From NCBI GenBank assembly GCA_045863235.1, contig BTUM01000004.1:88621-152620 (forward strand): 64,000 nt of DNA, in the 5' to 3' direction. Of the stretch, positions 1-7,686 are shown in pieces; position 1 is the stretch's first letter, and the number at the start of each line of letters is the position of its first letter. Under the pieces are notes generated by a model. That model did not search any database, was not told where the DNA came from, and saw only the letters and a list, made by a program, of their open reading frames with translations. The stretch is from Candidatus Xenobia bacterium (lineage in GTDB: Bacteria; Vulcanimicrobiota; Xenobia; Xenobiales; QWHO01). Made by a program: the position numbers and the translations under genes.

Positions 1-1188
1 CAGCCGCCGCTCGACCTGCTCGACGAGGTGGAGCGCACCCTCGGCCTGCGAACCATCCCCATGAACTGGCCCCTGGGCAACGGGCCGTCTTTCCGAGGGG
101 TATTCGACCGGCGCACCAGGGAGGTTCACCTTTTCGAGCGCGTGGCCCACGGCTCCAAGGCCGCCTCGGTGCAGGTGATGGATCCCAACTCCCCCGAGGT
201 GGAACGACTGATGGACGACCAGAGCGCCTACAAGGCGTTCCGGGAGGAGCTCGAGCTCCTGGAGATGGCGGGCGAGGAGTTCGACGCCGAGGCTTTCGCC
301 ACCGGCCGGTTGACCCCGGTCTACTTCGGCAGCGCGGTCAGCAACTTCGGGGTGCAGCTCTTTCTGGACCAGTTCCTCGATCTGGCTCCCCAGCCGGCCG
401 CGAGGCGCACCGACGGCGAGCCGGTGCTTCCCCAGAGCCCGGAGTTCTCAGGCTTCGTGTTCAAGATCCAGGCCGACATGAACCCCCGCCATCGCGACCG
501 GGTGGCCTTCATGCGCATCTGCTCGGGCCAGTTCGAGCGCGGCATGAAGGTGCAGTGCGTGCGCACTGGGGCTACCATCCGCCTGAGCTACCCCCAGCAG
601 CTCTTTGCCCAGGAGCGACAGACCGTCGAGGAGGCCTACGCCGGCGACGTGGTGGGTCTGGTCAACTCGGGCGAACTCTATCTGGGCGACACTTTGCTGG
701 GCGGGGGGAAGAAATTCCGCTTCGAGCCCATCCCACTCTTTCCGCCCGAGCACTTCGCCCGCGTCACGCTGGTCGACCCCTCGCGGCGCAAGGCCTTCCA
801 GAGGGCCCTGGACCAGCTCAGTCACGAGGGCGCCGTGCAGATTTTCTACCTCACTGACGGCCACAGCCGAGACGTGGTCATGGGCGCGGTGGGCCGACTG
901 CAGTTCGAGGTGGTGCAGTATCGCATCAAGAACGACTACTCGGTGGACTGCCGCTTCGAGGTGCTCCCCTTCCAGCTGTGCCGCTGGCTGGAGGGGCCTC
1001 CCGACTCGCTGGCCAAGTTCTCCCCCACCCGCACCACGCGTCTGGCGGTCGATCCAGACAATCGCCCGGTGGCGCTCTTTCCGGGTCAGTGGGACCTGGA
1101 CTACACGGCCGAAAAGAACCCTGACCTCATCTTCCACTCGGTCAATCCCAAGGGGTTGCAGGCGCCCGTCACCGAGGAAGAGGACTGA
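1..1188 (+). CDS. prfC: Peptide chain release factor 3 (RF3), 5'-truncated at the window edge
   Basis: The reading frame is open from nt 1 (track ORF 28..1188 is its in-frame tail). The translation QPPLDLLDEVERTLGLRTIPMNWPLGNGPSFRGVFD... matches the conserved RF3 segment, cf. E. coli ...APITWPIGMG.... TGA stop at 1186-1188. Confidence 0.85.
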   Translation, partial: QPPLDLLDEVERTLGLRTIPMNWPLGNGPSFRGVFDRRTREVHLFERVAHGSKAASVQVMDPNSPEVERLMDDQSAYKAFREELELLEMAGEEFDAEAFATGRLTPVYFGSAVSNFGVQLFLDQFLDLAPQPAARRTDGEPVLPQSPEFSGFVFKIQADMNPRHRDRVAFMRICSGQFERGMKVQCVRTGATIRLSYPQQLFAQERQTVEEAYAGDVVGLVNSGELYLGDTLLGGGKKFRFEPIPLFPPEHFARVTLVDPSRRKAFQRALDQLSHEGAVQIFYLTDGHSRDVVMGAVGRLQFEVVQYRIKNDYSVDCRFEVLPFQLCRWLEGPPDSLAKFSPTRTTRLAVDPDNRPVALFPGQWDLDYTAEKNPDLIFHSVNPKGLQAPVTEEED

Positions 1189-1734: not shown

Positions 1735-2772
1735 TCAAAGGTGCCGCAGCAAACCATCCTCGGCAGCGGCGAAGTAGGGCTCCAGCGACTCGGCGTGACT
1801 GAGCATCTCGCCCTCCACGATGTCCAGGGCCAGGTCCTGGTCGTCCATGGCAAGCGAGTAAAAACGCAGCACTTTTTCAGCCAGGTAGAGGGCGGCCAGA
1901 CGGGACAGCACCGAGCTGCCCAGCAGCAGGTACTTCCGAAAGAGCAGGTGCTCGAGGTAGCGTTGGTCAGGCGCTCTGGCCAGGGGAAGCTGGGCCAGGC
2001 TGACCGGGCGCTGGGCCCGGGGAGGCTGCCAGGCCTGGCCCGCCTGCAGGATCGCGGTGCCCGCTTGCATCTCGGCCAGGTCCCTGCCTTCCAGGGCTCC
2101 CATGAGGCCGGCCATCAGCGTGGTCTCGAAGGCCTGCAGCAACTCATTCTGTTCAGGAGTGGGCAGAGTGGTCCACTCTTCCCTCAAAGTGGCTTCCCAG
2201 GGTGCCTGGCTGGCTGCCCGGGCCGGCACCGCCAGCATGCGCCAGGGGTCGGAAAGGCTCTCGCGTGCAAAGGACTCCAGCGAGAGATAGCCGGCCCAGT
2301 CAAGGAAGTGTCCTGGCGTCAAAGGGATCGGGCCCTCCCCGACCCGGGGGTACTGCCCGGTAGCCCGCAGCTCCTCGAGTTGAGGGCGGTGCACCTCCAT
2401 CGGCCGGCCCACTTGCTGCTTGACTGCCGTGCAGCGAAAGCTCAGGCCGGCGAATGGGCCGTCCGGGGTCTCCACCAGGAAGAAGGGGAACTGCCGGCAG
2501 GCGCGGGGCTTGGCTGCAGCGCCGAGCTCGGCATGCACGGCGCACAGCATGTCGGACCTGAGAAAAACGCACTTGTCATCCTCGGGCCGAAAGCCCAGGC
2601 GGTGGAGCCCGTCGTTACAGGCCACGAAGGGCTGGTAGCCCTGCTTTCTGGCCTGCTCGGCCAGCTCAGTCTTCTCCAGCCGCTGGCGGGCCTCTTCCTC
2701 CACCAGCACACGCCAGTGCCCGCAGCTCTTGCCGCACTGGATACAGTCGTAGCGGAGGGGGGGAAAGTGCAT
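1735..2772 (-). CDS. YkgJ/UPF0153-family putative Fe-S or zinc-chelating domain protein
   Basis: Internal ATG at 2770-2772 (M147 of track ORF 1735..3210). The upstream 146 codons are an Arg/Ser-rich frame extension. The product begins MHFPPLRYDCIQCGKSCGHW and continues ...FVACNDGLHRLGFRPEDDKCVFL...CAVH...CRQFPF, the cysteine pattern of the YkgJ / flagellin N-methylase-like family. Confidence 0.6.
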   Translation of the reverse strand: MHFPPLRYDCIQCGKSCGHWRVLVEEEARQRLEKTELAEQARKQGYQPFVACNDGLHRLGFRPEDDKCVFLRSDMLCAVHAELGAAAKPRACRQFPFFLVETPDGPFAGLSFRCTAVKQQVGRPMEVHRPQLEELRATGQYPRVGEGPIPLTPGHFLDWAGYLSLESFARESLSDPWRMLAVPARAASQAPWEATLREEWTTLPTPEQNELLQAFETTLMAGLMGALEGRDLAEMQAGTAILQAGQAWQPPRAQRPVSLAQLPLARAPDQRYLEHLLFRKYLLLGSSVLSRLAALYLAEKVLRFYSLAMDDQDLALDIVEGEMLSHAESLEPYFAAAEDGLLRHL

Positions 2773-2920
2773 GGTGGCTGAAAAGCGAGCTGCACCCCAT
2801 TCCGGCCAAGAAACGCAGGTGCAGCGGGAGGAGCAGTTGCGTGCCCCGCTCATCTTGTTCCGCTCGTTGAATGGCGATTCCTTCCCAGGGGAGGATTCCC
2901 CCCACGGGGAATTAATGCAA

Positions 2921-2991
2921 GCGTAGCGCGCAGCGAGCTTGCGAGCGAAGTCACGAGGTGTGCGTAGCGCGTAGCGAGCTTGCGAGCGAAG
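2921..2991 (+). repeat. Tandem direct repeat (2 x 30 nt, 29/30 identical, 11-nt spacer) in the 5' region of the AAA+ ATPase operon
   Basis: gcgtagcgcgCagcgagcttgcgagcgaag (about 2921-2950) and gcgtagcgcgTagcgagcttgcgagcgaag (about 2962-2991), ending roughly 15 nt before the SD (ggaaaaggag) and ATG at 3005. A 7-bp inverted repeat ATTCCCC-ccac-GGGGAAT lies just upstream at about 2896-2913. Confidence 0.5.
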
Positions 2992-3004
2992 GAAAAGGAG
3001 TCCC

Positions 3005-3847
3005 ATGTCGGCCGAGAAGTCCACCACCCCCCAGACCGTCGAAATCGACGGAGTGACCCTGCACCTGACCCACCCCGACGAGCTGCCCATCAAGTGGGTC
3101 GGGCAAGACGACCTGATCGCCCAACTGCTCGCCTCCTGGGTCGTGCTCGAGCAGCGCGACCTGCCTCTCAACCCGCGCCTGCTGGGCAAGCCTGGAGTGG
3201 GCAAGACCACCCTGGCCTACGCCGCCGGCAAGAAGATGGGGCGTGAGGTGTACCTGTTCCAGGCCACCATGGATACCCGCCCCGAGGACCTGATTATCTC
3301 GCCCGTGGTCTCGGCCGAGCAGTCGATCCGCTACGTAGCCAGCGCCGTGGTCACGGCCATGGTGCGCGGCGGAGTGCTGATCCTGGACGAGGGCAACCGC
3401 ATGAGCGAGAAATCGTGGGCCTCCCTGGCCCCCCTGCTGGATGCCCGCCGCTACGTCGAGTCCCTGGTGGCGGGCATCAAGGTCAAAGCCCACCCAGAAT
3501 TCCGCTTCTGTGCCACCATGAACGACGACTCCTCCACCTTCGAGCTGCCCGAGTACATCCACTCGCGCCTGCAGCCGCAGATCCTGGTGGACTTCCCCGA
3601 CAAGGACGAAGAGCTCTCGATTTTGCAGGAGAACCTGCCCTTCATGGACCTGGCCGTCCTGAGCTATGTGGCCGACTTCCTCCAGCGGGCCCACCGGGCC
3701 GACGAGCGCTACTCGGTGCGCGACGGAATCAACATCGCCCGCTACGCCGGAAAGATCGGCCGCGAGCTGGGTCTGGAGCCCCCGGTGGCCCTCAAGCGAT
3801 CGATCGCCCAGGTGCTGGGAGAAGAGGCGCTGGTGTATGGGCCGTGA
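3005..3847 (+). CDS. MoxR/CbbQ/NorQ-type AAA+ ATPase (AAA_5-like)
   Basis: 280 aa. Walker A is LLGKPGVGKTTLAYAAG, Walker B is GGVLILDEGNRM. Its size and motif spacing are typical of MoxR-class chaperone ATPases. SD ggaaaaggag lies 6 nt upstream of the ATG. Confidence 0.8.
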   Translation: MSAEKSTTPQTVEIDGVTLHLTHPDELPIKWVGQDDLIAQLLASWVVLEQRDLPLNPRLLGKPGVGKTTLAYAAGKKMGREVYLFQATMDTRPEDLIISPVVSAEQSIRYVASAVVTAMVRGGVLILDEGNRMSEKSWASLAPLLDARRYVESLVAGIKVKAHPEFRFCATMNDDSSTFELPEYIHSRLQPQILVDFPDKDEELSILQENLPFMDLAVLSYVADFLQRAHRADERYSVRDGINIARYAGKIGRELGLEPPVALKRSIAQVLGEEALVYGP

Positions 3848-6047
3848 GCCCTTTGCTCTCAAGCACGGAAAGGTACTGATCGTTCCGGTCTGCCACTACC
3901 AGATGGAGTTCGCCCAGGCGGTGCGGCAGGCCATCCGGGCCTTCCAGCCGGCCCAGATCGCCATCGAGCTGGCCCCCTTCCTTCGCCAGCGCTACCTGGA
4001 AGCGGTCCAACGGCTACCCTACCTCTCCGTGCTCGTCTACGGCACGGAGGAGGCTCCCGAGTTCATGCCCGTGGATCCCTGCGACGCCTTTACCGAGGCG
4101 GCTCGCTCGGCTCTCGAGCGCGACATCCCGCTCCACTTTGTGGATCTGGCCCTGAAGTACCCCGGGATCTTCGAGCCCATGCCCGACTCCCATGCGCTCT
4201 ACCGCATCGGTCTGGAAGAGTACTGGAACGCCTATCACGAGGCCGCCGCCAACGCTCCCAGGGCCCCCGAGGACCAGCTTCGGGAGGCCCACATGGCCTT
4301 CGAGATCGAGCGCCAGCTCGAGCAGGGCTCGCTGCTGCTCGTCTGCGGCATGGCCCACGCCGCGCGCATCCTCGAGCACCTCCAGGCGGGCACTGGGCGG
4401 CGCGAGCGCCACGACCGCGAGGACCAGGTCGAGCTCTACAACATCCACGAGGCCATGTACAGCATGCTGGGCATGGACACCCCTTTCTGCGCCACCGCCT
4501 ACCAGATCGCCCGCAACGGTTTCGGGCCCGACGAGGCCTGGGAGCCCCCTCAGGTCAAGGAGCCCCCCATCCCCGCGAGCTCCTCGCGACTCGAGCAGCT
4601 CGAGCGCAAGGATGCCATCCAATCCCTCGAGCGGTTGCTGGGTATGACCCCAAAGGACCAGAAGGCCGCCAAGAAGGACCCCCACTGGGCTCAGGAGCTC
4701 AAGCGCCTGCTGGCCCTCAAGCTGCAAGAGCTGAAAGAGCGCCAGCTGGATGTCAACTCGCTGCTAGAAGGACCGCTCGAACGTCCGGCTGAGCTCGAGA
4801 ACGCCCCCCAGGTGCCCCGCCACCTGGTGCGGGTCTTCACCTTCAAGACCTGCAAGGACCGCAAGCGCGAACTGCGCCAGACCTTCCAGAAACTGGTGGA
4901 GCAGTACTGGAGCCCGGACGGCTACCTCGACCGCCACCGCATGTTGCTCGCTCTGTGGGAGATCTCCGGGCGCCATTACGAGGACAATACCGGCGAGCAG
5001 ATCAAGAAGTGGCAGAAGCGAGTGATGCTGCAGTTCACCCGCAACTACTGCACCCTCACGGGGGGCATTCTGCCCACCCTCTACCAATCGGTGGTCGGGG
5101 CTCGCGGAGTGGCCGATGACAACTATGCCTGGGAGTTGTGGGAGCTGGGCCTCTTCTATCCCTGGGTGGACGAGAGCGGGCGCTATGAGACGATCTCGAT
5201 GGAAGGCGACGAGATCAACGTGGGTGGGCGCCGTATGCGCTTCGAGACCATCTGGTTCCACCGCCGTATCCCGCGGTTACGCGAACGCCCCTTGCCCATC
5301 AAGTCGCGCAAGAAGGAGGAGAATCCCGGCGAGTGGAGCGAGGACTTCAAGAAGGGCACGATCTGCTCGTATCCCCCGGAAGACGTGATCATCGAAGACT
5401 ACGGTCGCTATCTGCAAAAGAAGGCCATCACCGTGCTGAGCGAGGAGCGCACCCGGGTGGAGCCGTTCACCTCCAGCCTGCTCGACGGCCTGGACATGCG
5501 CGAGACTATCCGCAACTGGGCCGATGGCCAGCAGCTCTACGTGCGCGAGACCCAGAAGATCCAGGGCGGCACCGGCTCGGTGGTGCTGATCTTCGATGAG
5601 GACCTGGACGACCGGCGCTTTCCCTGGAAGATGACATGGCACGGCGAGCACGCCCAGGAATCGGACATGGCCTTCTACGCCACCCCGGCCCAGGCCAAGA
5701 TCGTAGGCCCGGGCATCGCCCGCTGCGAGTATGGCGGGCTGATGCTCACCTATCCCCCGCGACGGTTGCTCGATGTCTGGAGCGATCCCTTCTATCGAGA
5801 GCAGTGCAAGACCAAAGCCGAGATGCTGCTGCTGGCGGGCCTTGAGTACTCGGAGGACAAACACGTGGCCTACGTGGCCGCCAAGCCTCCTCGCACTTAC
5901 TTTCGCACCCTGGCCAGCCGGCTCAACCGCAAGATTGTCTACCTGCCCATCGGGCAGCTCTCGCCGGTCAGCCTCAAGAAAATTCGCGTCTTTCACGTGC
6001 TGTCCGGGCACCGGCTGCGCAAGATCGCCAAGGACTACATCTGGTAG
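3837..6047 (+). CDS. Large (736 aa) uncharacterised partner protein of the AAA+ ATPase, possibly DUF5682-like
   Basis: ATG at 3837-3839 overlaps the last 11 nt of the ATPase gene, indicating translational coupling. N-terminus is MGREPFALKHGKVLIVPVCHYQMEFAQAVRQAIRAF.... Composition is balanced (W, Y, K, N present) and there is no VWA/MIDAS motif. The DUF5682 family assignment is from memory, not from a search. Confidence 0.55.
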   Translation: MGREPFALKHGKVLIVPVCHYQMEFAQAVRQAIRAFQPAQIAIELAPFLRQRYLEAVQRLPYLSVLVYGTEEAPEFMPVDPCDAFTEAARSALERDIPLHFVDLALKYPGIFEPMPDSHALYRIGLEEYWNAYHEAAANAPRAPEDQLREAHMAFEIERQLEQGSLLLVCGMAHAARILEHLQAGTGRRERHDREDQVELYNIHEAMYSMLGMDTPFCATAYQIARNGFGPDEAWEPPQVKEPPIPASSSRLEQLERKDAIQSLERLLGMTPKDQKAAKKDPHWAQELKRLLALKLQELKERQLDVNSLLEGPLERPAELENAPQVPRHLVRVFTFKTCKDRKRELRQTFQKLVEQYWSPDGYLDRHRMLLALWEISGRHYEDNTGEQIKKWQKRVMLQFTRNYCTLTGGILPTLYQSVVGARGVADDNYAWELWELGLFYPWVDESGRYETISMEGDEINVGGRRMRFETIWFHRRIPRLRERPLPIKSRKKEENPGEWSEDFKKGTICSYPPEDVIIEDYGRYLQKKAITVLSEERTRVEPFTSSLLDGLDMRETIRNWADGQQLYVRETQKIQGGTGSVVLIFDEDLDDRRFPWKMTWHGEHAQESDMAFYATPAQAKIVGPGIARCEYGGLMLTYPPRRLLDVWSDPFYREQCKTKAEMLLLAGLEYSEDKHVAYVAAKPPRTYFRTLASRLNRKIVYLPIGQLSPVSLKKIRVFHVLSGHRLRKIAKDYIW

Positions 6048-6415
6048 TGCTCTCGCTGCGCTGGCCCCGGCTCTGCAGGCTGGTGGAGAAAGCGGGTACG
6101 ACCCCGGTCTGGCTGCACGGACGGGTGCTCCGGTTGCGCGAGGAGACGGGCGAGTACGAGGGCGACCACCAGTATGCCGGCCACCTCGACTGGCACTTTG
6201 CCGAGGTGCTGGCCCGGGTCGTGAGCCTGAGCCGGCTCACCCCCCAGGGGCCCGACGAGCCCCTGCCGGCGCCCCGAGATGTCACCGTCAACTTCGACCC
6301 CTTCCCGGACGGACTGCGCTCGGGAGTGGAGTTCCGGGTAGCCGGACGGCTCTTTCCCGACGGCCGCATCGAGCCCGTCACCGAGAGCCTGGAGCTGATC
6401 AAGCGCGAGCAGTGA
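6047..6415 (+). CDS. Small hypothetical protein (122 aa), translationally coupled to the upstream gene
   Basis: The GTG start at 6047 overlaps the TAG stop of the upstream gene by 1 nt (TAGTG). The product MLSLRWPRLCRLVEKAGTTPVWLHGRVLRLREETGEYEGDHQYAGHLDWHF... has balanced composition and no recognisable domain. Confidence 0.45.
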   Translation: MLSLRWPRLCRLVEKAGTTPVWLHGRVLRLREETGEYEGDHQYAGHLDWHFAEVLARVVSLSRLTPQGPDEPLPAPRDVTVNFDPFPDGLRSGVEFRVAGRLFPDGRIEPVTESLELIKREQ

Positions 6416-6468
6416 AGCCGAGTCCGGCAGCGAGGGGAACTCCGCGAAGAAAGCAGAACCCCGCCGGG

Positions 6469-7122
6469 ATGGAGTTCGATGACCAGCGCCTGGGTGAGCG
6501 TCTGCGCCAGGCCCGCGAGGCGCGCGGCTGGAGTCTTTCGGAGCTGGCCGCAGGGGTAGGCTACCCACCCGAGATGGTGGCCGAGTGGGAGAGCGGCCAA
6601 CGCTCCCTCAAACCCCGTCTGCTCTATCGGCTGGCCCAGGTGCTGGGTACCCCCGTGGCCCGCCTTTTCGACGAGGACGAGAACCGCTTCATCCCCTGGA
6701 ACCCCAATACCGGACGGCTGGACATCTGCCTTCACTGCGGCGCCCGCGAGCACGCCGCCGAAGCTGCCCACTGCAGCGAGTGCGGCTACCAACTGGAGAC
6801 TTCACAGTGCACTGGCGAATTGGAGGATGCCTACCTGGGCATGTCCCGGCCCTGTCTCAACCTGATCCCCCCCGGCCAGATGCACTGCCAGAACTGCGGC
6901 ACCCCCTCGCTGTGGGCCGAGCTCTCCGACCGCCTGCCCCGGCGCGGCCTGCATGCCGTGGAGGGATTGGTGGAGGCTCCCGCTCGGGGCGAGCTGGAGC
7001 TGGCCCTGGAGCGGCTCGAGGAGCTCGAGCATGGCCTTCGCGAGGTGCGCCTGCAGCTCGAGCGTCTGGCCGGCCGGCCGAGCAAGGTGGAGCGCAGTTC
7101 ACATCCTGACGCAAAGCGTTAA
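6469..7122 (+). CDS. XRE-family HTH transcriptional regulator with two zinc-ribbon motifs and a C-terminal coiled coil
   Basis: In-frame ATG at 6469 (the track ORF 5773..7122 has an Arg/Pro-rich leader artefact). The HTH region is LGERLRQAREARGWSLSELAAGVGYPPEMVAEWESGQRSL. Zinc-ribbon-like pairs are CLHCG...HCSECG and CLNL...HCQNCG. Confidence 0.7.
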   Translation: MEFDDQRLGERLRQAREARGWSLSELAAGVGYPPEMVAEWESGQRSLKPRLLYRLAQVLGTPVARLFDEDENRFIPWNPNTGRLDICLHCGAREHAAEAAHCSECGYQLETSQCTGELEDAYLGMSRPCLNLIPPGQMHCQNCGTPSLWAELSDRLPRRGLHAVEGLVEAPARGELELALERLEELEHGLREVRLQLERLAGRPSKVERSSHPDAKR

Positions 7123-7182: not shown

Positions 7183-7686
7183 ATGCAGATCAGCCAGCTG
7201 ACCACCTATAACCTTCCCCGGACCGCCAACGCTCCCGTGGCGGGGAAGTCCGCGCCTCCGGTTCAGGAAGAGCCGGCGGACCGTATTGAAGCATTTTACA
7301 CCGGGGCGGCCAACACCGCCAAGTGGATGTCGCGCATCGACGGCGCCGTACTCGGCGGCGTCATCGGGCTGGCCGTGGGCGCCACCGTGGGGGCAGCCGT
7401 CTTCGGAGCCGGCGGGACCGGAATGGGCTCCTTCCTCATCGCCAGCGGTCTGGCCGTGGGCGGCGGTGCCGGCGGCTACACCGCCTTCGACCGGCTGAGC
7501 GCCTTTGGCGGCAAGATCGGCCGGGGCCTGGACGAGGGCAACGACCTGCGCGGCGAGGCTCTGGGCCGGGTGGGCGTGAACATGGGCCTCAGTCTGCTCG
7601 CGGGCAACTGGCGAGCGGTGGCCCTGAACGCCGCCATCCCGCTCGTCGGTGGTGCCGTCAACTACGCCCTGGCTGGCGATCGATAA
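7183..7686 (+). CDS. Small glycine-zipper-like membrane protein
   Basis: 167 aa with Gly/Ala-rich hydrophobic stretches (GGVIGLAVGATVGAAVFGAGGTGMG...LAVGGGAGGY). A T8 run follows the stop. Confidence 0.5.
   Translation: MQISQLTTYNLPRTANAPVAGKSAPPVQEEPADRIEAFYTGAANTAKWMSRIDGAVLGGVIGLAVGATVGAAVFGAGGTGMGSFLIASGLAVGGGAGGYTAFDRLSAFGGKIGRGLDEGNDLRGEALGRVGVNMGLSLLAGNWRAVALNAAIPLVGGAVNYALAGDR

Follow-up and report, generated by a model that had tools for sequence, protein, structure and literature searches.

How does a MoxR-class ATPase act when the large protein encoded next to it lacks the VWA domain, and how many of the genes around such a pair belong to the same system? These questions are raised by four consecutive genes near the start of a 64,000-nt stretch of DNA from Candidatus Xenobia bacterium (contig BTUM01000004.1 of assembly GCA_045863235.1, forward-strand positions 88,621 to 152,620), hereafter called the window, which encode an AAA+ ATPase, a 736-aa (amino-acid) partner, a 122-aa small protein and an XRE-family regulator. 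Our results revealed that the unit conserved in many phyla is the pair of ATPase and partner, and that the small protein and the regulator accompany this pair in one narrow clade.

The ATPase-partner pair and its distribution

The four open reading frames (ORFs) and their operon-like packing, as described in the initial annotation, were confirmed in the ORF list (Table 1). Both overlaps it reported are seen in the sequence: the ATPase ends with TGA at 3845-3847 and the partner starts with ATG at 3837, which gives an overlap of 11 nt, and the TAG of the partner (6045-6047) has one G in common with the GTG of the small ORF at 6047 (TAGTG). The XRE gene does follow the small ORF, with the gap between its ATG at 6469 and position 6415 being 53 nt instead of the 54 first counted. 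Since homologues of each of the four genes (62-99% identity) retain this order in other assemblies and the indels among the relatives are multiples of three, the ORFs are real genes and not chance ORFs. The GC content here is about 62-73%, as calculated in 500-nt windows over the first 14 kb, and a scan of the plus strand between 2500 and 7800 gave no promoter-like or terminator-like site.

As for the ATPase, its proposed assignment to the MoxR/CbbQ type holds well. It matches Pfam AAA_5 over residues 59-188 with 65 bits (cut-off 22, E 9e-18), and its best matches among PDB sequences are the AAA modules of midasin, followed by NorQ (8.5e-6) and CbbQ (3.7e-4). It bears the Walker A motif GKPGVGKT, the Walker B motif LILDEGN and the sensor 1 motif ATMND, and GKPGVGKT, ILDEGN and TMN[DE] are retained in 80-81 of the 81 homologues from other loci. 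Judged by these motifs, the protein is a catalytically intact MoxR-class (AAA_5) AAA+ enzyme. The GvpN model gives 29.8 bits, far below its cut-off of 266.8, E. coli YehL shows no significant BLASTP similarity, and in PADLOC a weak match to TRIP13 (1.5e-7) is the only one obtained. Across many phyla the ATPase remains 60-86% identical in the relatives, which exceeds the conservation of the partner.

The partner is found to be widespread. A word-index protein search with it gave 25 relatives, and a further search of this kind from a partner alignment added none beyond those known; an exhaustive search with the family profile gave 1809 clusters when grouped at 50% identity, of which 525 reached E <= 1e-30. 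When one genome per species was scanned, relatives were seen in at least 592 genomes. The carriers include the Desulfuromonadales/Geobacteraceae and other Desulfobacterota, Acidobacteriota (Bryobacterales, Blastocatellia), Eremiobacterota/Vulcanimicrobiota, Omnitrophota, Nitrospirota, Fimbriimonadaceae, Acidimicrobiia and Wallbacteria, among others. Cultured carriers are Pelotalea chapellei, Geomonas edaphica and Geotalea toluenoxydans from the species scan, and Bryobacter aggregatus from the word-index search.

The ATPase gene lies directly upstream of the partner gene in 74 of the 86 loci with enough upstream sequence, usually overlapping it or within about 40 nt, and in 5 more the two are split by inserted genes. 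A third conserved gene was sought by clustering the ORFs of 90 loci, and no family occurred in more than about 11 of them; the larger groupings proved to consist of response regulators or of antisense artefacts, and the ORFs directly downstream of the partner, when clustered, displayed lineage-level synteny alone. Moreover, the 149 immediate flanking genes (from about 75 genomes) belong to 167 different Pfam families, each occurring at most 4 times, and are mostly housekeeping genes such as those for SelB, response regulators, methyltransferases, ferrochelatase, FtsJ, DAHP synthase and ribosomal S1. Most of the PADLOC families listed for the same genes were matched by one gene, and several of these were kinase and helicase models. 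Because no other gene recurs in the flanks, the conserved unit is the ATPase-partner pair, in surroundings of a housekeeping type. The self-contained module of four genes that the initial annotation had seen here is accordingly not upheld: the small protein and this XRE are absent from 80 genome loci (best partner identity 56%), and the four-gene synteny is also lost in the loci L004-L007 and L090 (39-60% partner identity), that is, in the relatives outside one narrow clade.

Some genes near the pair deserve mention in their own right. A 197-aa gene, TetR-like by reading of its sequence, follows the partner in five Vulcanimicrobiota-type loci. In some metagenome-assembled genomes (MAGs) of Geobacteraceae, a gene of about 1170 aa is inserted between ATPase and partner (L053, 2493-5993; L082, 2391-5900), and the one strong match to a DpdE/ZorD-like SNF2 helicase among the neighbours scanned may be this insert.

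Architecture of the partner

The 736-aa partner has no match in Pfam, NCBIfam, PADLOC or PDB sequences, and a profile search of the PDB sequences gave no match either. An earlier AlphaFold model built on 24 sequences reached a mean predicted local distance difference test score (pLDDT) of 68, with a poor C-terminal half, and found nothing in PDB by Foldseek. A second model was built on an alignment of 144 sequences; with this one Foldseek found nothing in PDB at E < 0.001. The statement in the initial annotation that the partner has no DxSxS MIDAS motif and no recognisable domain is thus borne out by sequence searches, since no Pfam VWA match was obtained in the partner or in 73 diverse relatives; in addition, no VWA protein occurs among the 149 flanking genes.

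What could be placed is the N-terminal domain. In the fold searches, which used the whole model as query and do not assign matches to particular residues, the N-domain fold matches the superfamily of Tiki, RRSP, erythromycin esterases and TraB, and the Pfam model TraB_PrgY_gumN is matched by 9 of the 73 diverse family members. This superfamily is defined by two GxxH-type motifs and conserved acidic residues, and both the motifs and the acidic residues are present in the partner: the xxH motifs are PVCH20 and GMAH174, accompanied by the conserved E24, E44, E87, R90, D117 and E150. Among the 144 members, H20 is retained in 116, G171-x-x-H174 in 107-114, E44 in 124, E87 in 130, R90 in 137 and D117 in 140. 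The N-terminal domain of the partner therefore has the fold and the motifs of the TraB/ChaN/EreA group (Tiki superfamily). About 20% of the members, the Bryobacter group included, have lost both xxH motifs and kept the rest, and because of this loss in a Bryobacter-type subgroup, catalysis by the N-domain would not be the universal core of the family. Close to the pair of Bryobacter aggregatus (L007, 10263-14684) there are hemA, hemC, cobA-hemD, a gene for cytochrome c assembly and one for a sirohaem-type reductase, and a ferrochelatase gene adjoins the pair in three other loci; these tetrapyrrole neighbours could be due to chance or to lineage synteny, and are notable given the ChaN-like (haem-binding) fold of the N-domain.

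The charged insert that follows is variable (mean consensus frequency 0.09) and is absent or short in many members, so that the alignment has gaps there in members of 610-660 aa. After the helical middle domain and a beta-hairpin comes a conserved basic loop, RRIPRLRERPLPIKSRKKEENPGEW, with a median K+R fraction of 0.33 in the 144 members; by analogy with NorD and McrC (PMC13036017), it is a candidate for a 'finger' that may enter the pore of the ATPase ring.

The most conserved part is the C-terminal alpha/beta domain, whose consensus frequency is 0.52-0.61. It bears the motifs CSYPPED, LLDGIDxRETxRNW, VVxIFDED, GEHxQESDMAFYAT, GPGIxRCEYGG and the terminal ...AKDYIW, with G551, E604, H720 and R728 being invariant, and in 83 of the 144 members the C-terminus falls at the same alignment column, most often as ...DYIW. 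No relatives of this domain were found by Pfam (73 diverse members), by the profile search of PDB or by Foldseek, and as far as such searches can tell it is a highly conserved domain that was previously unrecognised.

Table 1. Features of the window, and copies of the 65-nt element in other loci. Positions are those of the window unless a locus is named.
Feature	Position	Strand	Basis or remark
prfC (peptide chain release factor 3)	28-1188	+	window starts inside gene
CxxCxxCC gene (PF03692), 345 aa	1735-2772	-	divergent
65-nt core	2781-2853	-	in intergenic 2773-3004
GGA(A/T)TCC-centred imperfect palindrome	2876-2912		
30-nt direct repeat, two copies	2921-2950, 2962-2991		repeat search, 97% identical
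MoxR-class AAA+ ATPase, 280 aa	3005-3847	+	Pfam AAA_5
Partner, 736 aa	3837-6047	+	no family match
Partner N-terminal domain, residues 1-235	3837-4541	+	TraB/ChaN/erythromycin-esterase (Tiki superfamily) fold
Partner variable charged insert, residues 236-342	4542-4862	+	pLDDT 45-72; mostly low-confidence or disordered
Partner helical middle domain 343-440, beta-hairpin 452-468, basic loop ~470-498	4863-5336	+	model secondary structure, pLDDT
Partner C-terminal alpha/beta domain, residues 501-736	5337-6047	+	most conserved family region
Small protein, 122 aa	6047-6415	+	no family match; lineage-restricted
XRE-family regulator, 217 aa	6469-7122	+	Pfam HTH_3
Gly/Ala-rich protein, 167 aa	7183-7686	+	no family match
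800-aa protein	7723-10125	+	no family match
Ser/Thr kinase gene	10150-12006		after the 800-aa gene
65-nt element in L001	8960-9033		
65-nt element in L088	1141-1206		
65-nt element in L089	1181-1251		
65-nt element in L092	5828-5894		
65-nt element in L094	~7545-7610		
65-nt element in L095	1340-1410		
65-nt element in L098	~2330-2400		

Small protein, XRE regulator and upstream elements in one clade

The small protein and the XRE regulator accompany the pair in six independent loci, namely the window and L001, L088, L092, L094 and L089, whose partners are respectively 95%, 74%, 73%, 72% and 68% identical to that of the window, and both are absent from the next relative, L090, at 60%. L090 is annotated as Candidatus Eremiobacterota, and the best species-level genome matches are UBP9 and Vulcanimicrobiota MAGs; the carrier clade is narrow and probably Eremiobacterota-related, and the organism of the window is an uncultured bacterium. 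The 122-aa protein has no match in Pfam, NCBIfam or PADLOC; among 5.8 billion sequences it is represented by only 7 clusters, with identities of 62% or more, and its gene stands directly after the partner gene in each of the five other loci. The regulator is 78-99% identical across all six independent loci of the clade. Its helix-turn-helix (HTH) domain matches HTH_3 strongly over residues 12-64 (52.2 bits, cut-off 23, E 6e-14), and the two zinc ribbons and the coiled coil read from it at the outset are supported as well, by weak matches to DZR and Zn_Ribbon_1 and by two Cys4-type ribbons followed by a heptad-rich C-terminal segment, the Cys pairs and the heptad-like segment being conserved in the relatives.

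Are these two genes functionally tied to the pair, or are they mere neighbours that have stayed there through recent common ancestry? For the latter it can be said that the pair does without them in all other lineages, that the six loci are fairly close relatives (68-95% partner identity), and that in L092 an unrelated DUF4013 gene is inserted between the small gene and the XRE gene, which was located there by tblastn at 10145-10771. On the other side, start and stop codons overlap or abut (the spacing between partner and small gene is -1 to +3 nt, and that between small gene and XRE gene is -14 to +1 nt in L088, L089 and L094), the small protein is found nowhere else, and the order ATPase-partner-small-XRE is kept in the clade while the CxxCxxCC gene and the 167-aa/800-aa gene pair around it were moved and inverted. 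Because the order is kept amid such rearrangement of the neighbours we favour a functional tie, though the clade is narrow, and hold mere neighbourhood to be unlikely, if still deserving of some weight. As far as sequence comparison can tell, the small protein and the XRE are lineage-specific add-ons to a housekeeping-looking pair; the former may be an accessory subunit or adaptor, and the latter a transcriptional regulator of the operon.

In regard to the neighbours themselves, the CxxCxxCC gene gives a sub-threshold match to FliB, the flagellin lysine-N-methylase (45 bits, cut-off 85). It is present next to the four genes in four of the five other clade loci, 56-87% identical, and absent in L092; in the window, L001, L088 and L089 it lies upstream of them in divergent orientation, and in L094 it lies downstream and runs in the same direction. 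The synteny of prfC, a 154-aa lipoprotein gene and the CxxCxxCC gene is seen also in L001. The 167-aa/800-aa pair is near the four genes in all six loci; it follows them in the window, L088 and L092, is inverted in L089 and precedes them in L094.

Several elements lie upstream of the ATPase gene. The unusual repeat-containing region pointed out in the initial annotation does exist, as a 30-nt direct repeat, GCGTAGCGCG[C/T]AGCGAGCTTGCGAGCGAAG, whose two copies are just upstream of the ribosome-binding site of the ATPase. These repeats may be a candidate operator; L001 retains a single copy, and L088 and L089 retain neither, so they are not kept in relatives whose XRE is 82-86% identical. Several loci of the clade, such as the window, L088 (~1225-1250) and L092 (5911-5935), also have an imperfect palindrome centred on GGA(A/T)TCC (for example CCCGGGAAGGAATCCCTCCCGG) a short distance before the ATPase start codon, and L094 does not; this palindrome may form a hairpin close to the ribosome-binding site or be bound by a protein.

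The third element is a 65-nt core, GGGGCACGCAACTGCTCCTC[C/T]CGCTGCACCTGCGTTTCTTGGCCGGAATG[G/A]GGTGCAGCTCGCTT, which is single-copy in the window and has no Rfam match. In six loci it is invariant save for two linked positions, and the flanking proteins are 56-86% identical. In five of the six loci the core ends 5-20 nt before a start codon on the same strand (in L088 it overlaps the called start), and the gene after it is the CxxCxxCC gene in four loci and a DUF3060-like gene in L092. We had considered the core as a promoter or leader of the ATPase operon, and dropped this reading since in L094 it was relocated together with the CxxCxxCC gene and a paralogous copy stands in a different context in sister MAGs; a sigma-54 promoter was also rejected, the spacing from GG to GC being one base short by eye. 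The paralogous copy keeps the predicted two-hairpin fold with changed stem sequences and has the same apical CGUUUC-UUGGCC-GGAAUG stem-loop. The element is thus a candidate for a lineage-specific structured RNA or regulatory hairpin, and one that is not specific to the ATPase genes.

Proposed mechanism, alternatives and known systems

MoxR ATPases, each in concert with a dedicated partner, serve in maturation in a chaperone-like manner (PMC3893208). In NorQD, a finger of the partner is inserted in the pore of the ring and the C-terminus of the partner docks on the post-sensor-1 loops, and McrBC, with a partner that lacks a VWA domain, has the finger-in-pore mode too (PMC13036017). With moderate confidence, we consider the pair in the window to be a two-gene MoxR-type remodelling machine with a non-VWA adaptor, to which the clade adds an accessory subunit and a regulator. 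Its dedicated partner of 600-800 aa would occupy the place that is usual for a VWA/MIDAS adaptor, and the ATPase would form a hexamer by analogy with NorQ-NorD, CbbQ-CbbO and McrB-McrC. The partner would dock on this hexamer, possibly via the basic loop as a finger in the pore and via the C-terminal ...DYIW tail, and ATP hydrolysis would remodel either the partner itself or a client held by it; such a grip is proposed because there are a conserved basic loop and a common C-terminal ending. The constellation of His, Glu, Arg and Asp in the N-domain, present in about 80% of the members, would be a hydrolytic site or a ligand site (for metal or tetrapyrrole/haem), and the C-domain would carry the family-specific activity. 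In the lineage of the window, the 122-aa protein would be an accessory subunit translationally coupled with the partner, and the XRE protein would regulate the operon.

Because the distribution is broad, the conservation strong and the neighbours of a housekeeping kind, the pair is suggested to serve a widespread cellular client in a chaperone or maturation capacity, and not to act in immunity. More tentatively, at a confidence a little short of an even chance, the pair may represent a new and widespread class of MoxR machine in Geobacteraceae/Desulfuromonadales, Acidobacteriota, Eremiobacterota and others, with a TraB/ChaN-like domain and a new C-domain as its adaptor, acting in housekeeping maturation or remodelling, possibly of a metal or tetrapyrrole client. 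The general logic of a MoxR ATPase with a dedicated partner is already known; what was undescribed is the non-VWA architecture of the partner together with its wide distribution. As MoxR-class ATPases are usually understood via VWA/MIDAS partners, a non-VWA pair would widen the modes of client recognition and remodelling. Moreover, DUF5682/YehM gains a handle, its N-domain now being placed in the TraB/ChaN/EreA fold, and the cultured carriers make the function genetically testable.

Several points nevertheless weigh against the remodelling-machine proposal. About 7 of the 86 loci have no ATPase within some 2-6 kb upstream of the partner. The housekeeping character is argued from distribution and neighbourhood and not from function, and it is by analogy only that a hexamer, a docking mode and functions for the basic loop and the tail are proposed. 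Catalysis by the N-domain, as the loss of both xxH motifs in about 20% of the members would have it, cannot be universal. There is on record no client, phenotype or biochemical activity for any member, and the searches for VWA covered the partner, its relatives and the flanks, so that a VWA gene may be located elsewhere in the genome.

Among the alternatives, the one nearest to this proposal, and in fact a more specific form of it, takes the pair as an ATP-dependent hydrolase in which the AAA+ ring would deliver or unfold the substrates of a Tiki/TraB-like metalloprotease or esterase. The fold of the N-domain, which is that of Tiki, RRSP, erythromycin esterases and TraB, speaks for it, and so do the two xxH motifs and acidic residues in about 80% of the members. 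However, ChaN has the same fold and is a haem-binding protein and not an enzyme, the remaining 20% lack the His motifs and keep everything else, and conservation peaks in the C-domain and not in the putative catalytic site. In addition, no MoxR-class ATPase is known to feed a protease. A hydrolase of this kind seems to us unlikely, if a possible refinement of the main proposal.

Another possibility is a divergent DUF5682/YehLMPQ system. The operon in E. coli has the order yehL (AAA_5)-yehM-yehP (VWA)-yehQ (SWIM), and the partner would be a YehM orthologue, with YehP-like VWA and YehQ-like SWIM proteins encoded elsewhere or a degenerate VWA hidden in its C-domain. E. coli YehM matches DUF5682 over its full length (2.4e-98), and hhalign aligned our family to it with a probability of 91.8%, at residues 14-189 only. 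The DUF5682 model PF18934 is matched by 29 of the 73 diverse members at E <= 1 (best 4.9e-8), and two homologues that were scanned singly gave 29.5 and 32.1 bits (cut-off 26); the matches span positions 1-83 and 164-214 of the 727 in the model, and the partner in the window has no match to it even at E <= 1. Hence the resemblance to DUF5682 noted in the initial annotation stands for the N-terminal ~190 residues and not for the remainder. Since the TraB/ChaN-like N-domain is all that the partner detectably has in common with DUF5682, the N-terminus of DUF5682 is itself placed in that fold. As to the VWA, residues 518-571 align weakly to the segment preceding the MIDAS strand of YehP, with VVLIFDEDLDD where LVLLVDQSGSM sits. 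A degenerate VWA, formed by the VVLIFDED strand after LLDGIDxRETxRNW, was considered and rejected, given the hhalign probability of 9.8% for the family with YehP, the missing Pfam VWA match and an order of secondary structures that is not VWA-like; it is noted as a weak lead. With the homology restricted to the N-domain, and with YehP-type VWA and YehQ-type SWIM genes absent from the flanks in the window and from the 149 flanking genes elsewhere, we regard a Yeh-type system as improbable, slightly more so than the hydrolase. A full-text literature search found no paper mentioning DUF5682, and literature searches gave none characterising yehM/yehL and none combining MoxR with DUF4132.

Least credible of all is an anti-phage or conflict system, with an AAA_5 NTPase as in McrB, an effector partner and the XRE as a switch (as in CapH-type or other XRE-controlled operons). 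In its favour, NTPases of the McrB type fall within AAA_5 too, and McrC acts as a partner without a VWA domain (PMC13036017). The XRE HTH matches the PADLOC models capH and RmrA (E 2.5e-9 and weaker), an antitoxin gene is near the pair in L090, and a few neighbours elsewhere match AbiEii, DpdE/ZorD-like helicases and PDC-S22 in PADLOC. In L004 (GCA_037975395.1, 53% identical) the pair has as neighbours a PycTM gene, toxin-antitoxin genes of the PIN/MazE type and a fragment of a phage-type integrase; neighbours of toxin-antitoxin or mobile-element kind are seen in L004 and L090 only. Against it, PADLOC gives no match for the partner or the small protein, the HTH matches are generic and the TRIP13 match of the ATPase is weak, and none of the proteins has a domain that can be recognised as a nuclease, a TIR, a protease or a pore former. 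Moreover, the XRE gene is missing from every locus outside the narrow clade, and the spread over many phyla with 60-86% ATPase identity and varied, mostly housekeeping flanks is unlike patchy, fast-evolving defence islands. The defence-like look first ascribed to the locus is therefore not supported, with L004 as an exception in its surroundings; its mobile or defence-type genes, at 6413-6928 and 10795-11259, make up the sole clearly mobile or defence-like context seen.

We now return to the remodelling machine, and compare its parts with known systems. TraB/PrgY/GumN, ChaN, erythromycin esterase, Tiki, RRSP and HopBA1 differ from the partner in that their known members are stand-alone enzymes, binding proteins or toxin domains, none having been described in partnership with an AAA+ ATPase; a literature search on MoxR with TraB/Tiki found nothing that links MoxR with that superfamily. 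The regulator resembles other XRE (HTH_3) proteins with C-terminal zinc ribbons in its canonical HTH_3, and its position at the operon end fits an autoregulator, whereas the upstream 30-nt repeats are not kept alongside such closely similar XREs. McrB-McrC is alike in joining an AAA_5 NTPase to a non-VWA partner with a finger in the ring pore (PMC13036017); however, the ATPase of the window is without the N-terminal DNA-reader domain of McrB, its partner is without a recognisable PD-(D/E)xK nuclease or any McrC match, and the distribution of the pair resembles that of housekeeping genes and not that of restriction systems. YehL-YehM is alike in that an AAA_5 ATPase is followed by a protein of about 750 aa whose N-terminal ~190 residues are homologous to the partner; unlike in the Yeh system, only the N-domain is common, the flanks hold no counterparts of YehP and YehQ, and the ATPase is not YehL-like by BLASTP. 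A similar layout is that of NorQ-NorD and CbbQ-CbbO, where likewise the gene of a short AAA_5 ATPase (~270-280 aa) immediately precedes that of a large dedicated partner and is coupled to it. Among solved stand-alone proteins, NorQ and CbbQ come nearest to the ATPase, yet the similarity is weak; no client operon adjoins the pair as in the nor and cbb systems, according to the flanking genes, and in place of the VWA/MIDAS of NorD and CbbO the partner has a TraB/ChaN-like N-domain and a C-domain without relatives. Even so, the two contacts used by NorD, its C-terminus and its pore finger (PMC13036017), both have candidates in the partner of the window.

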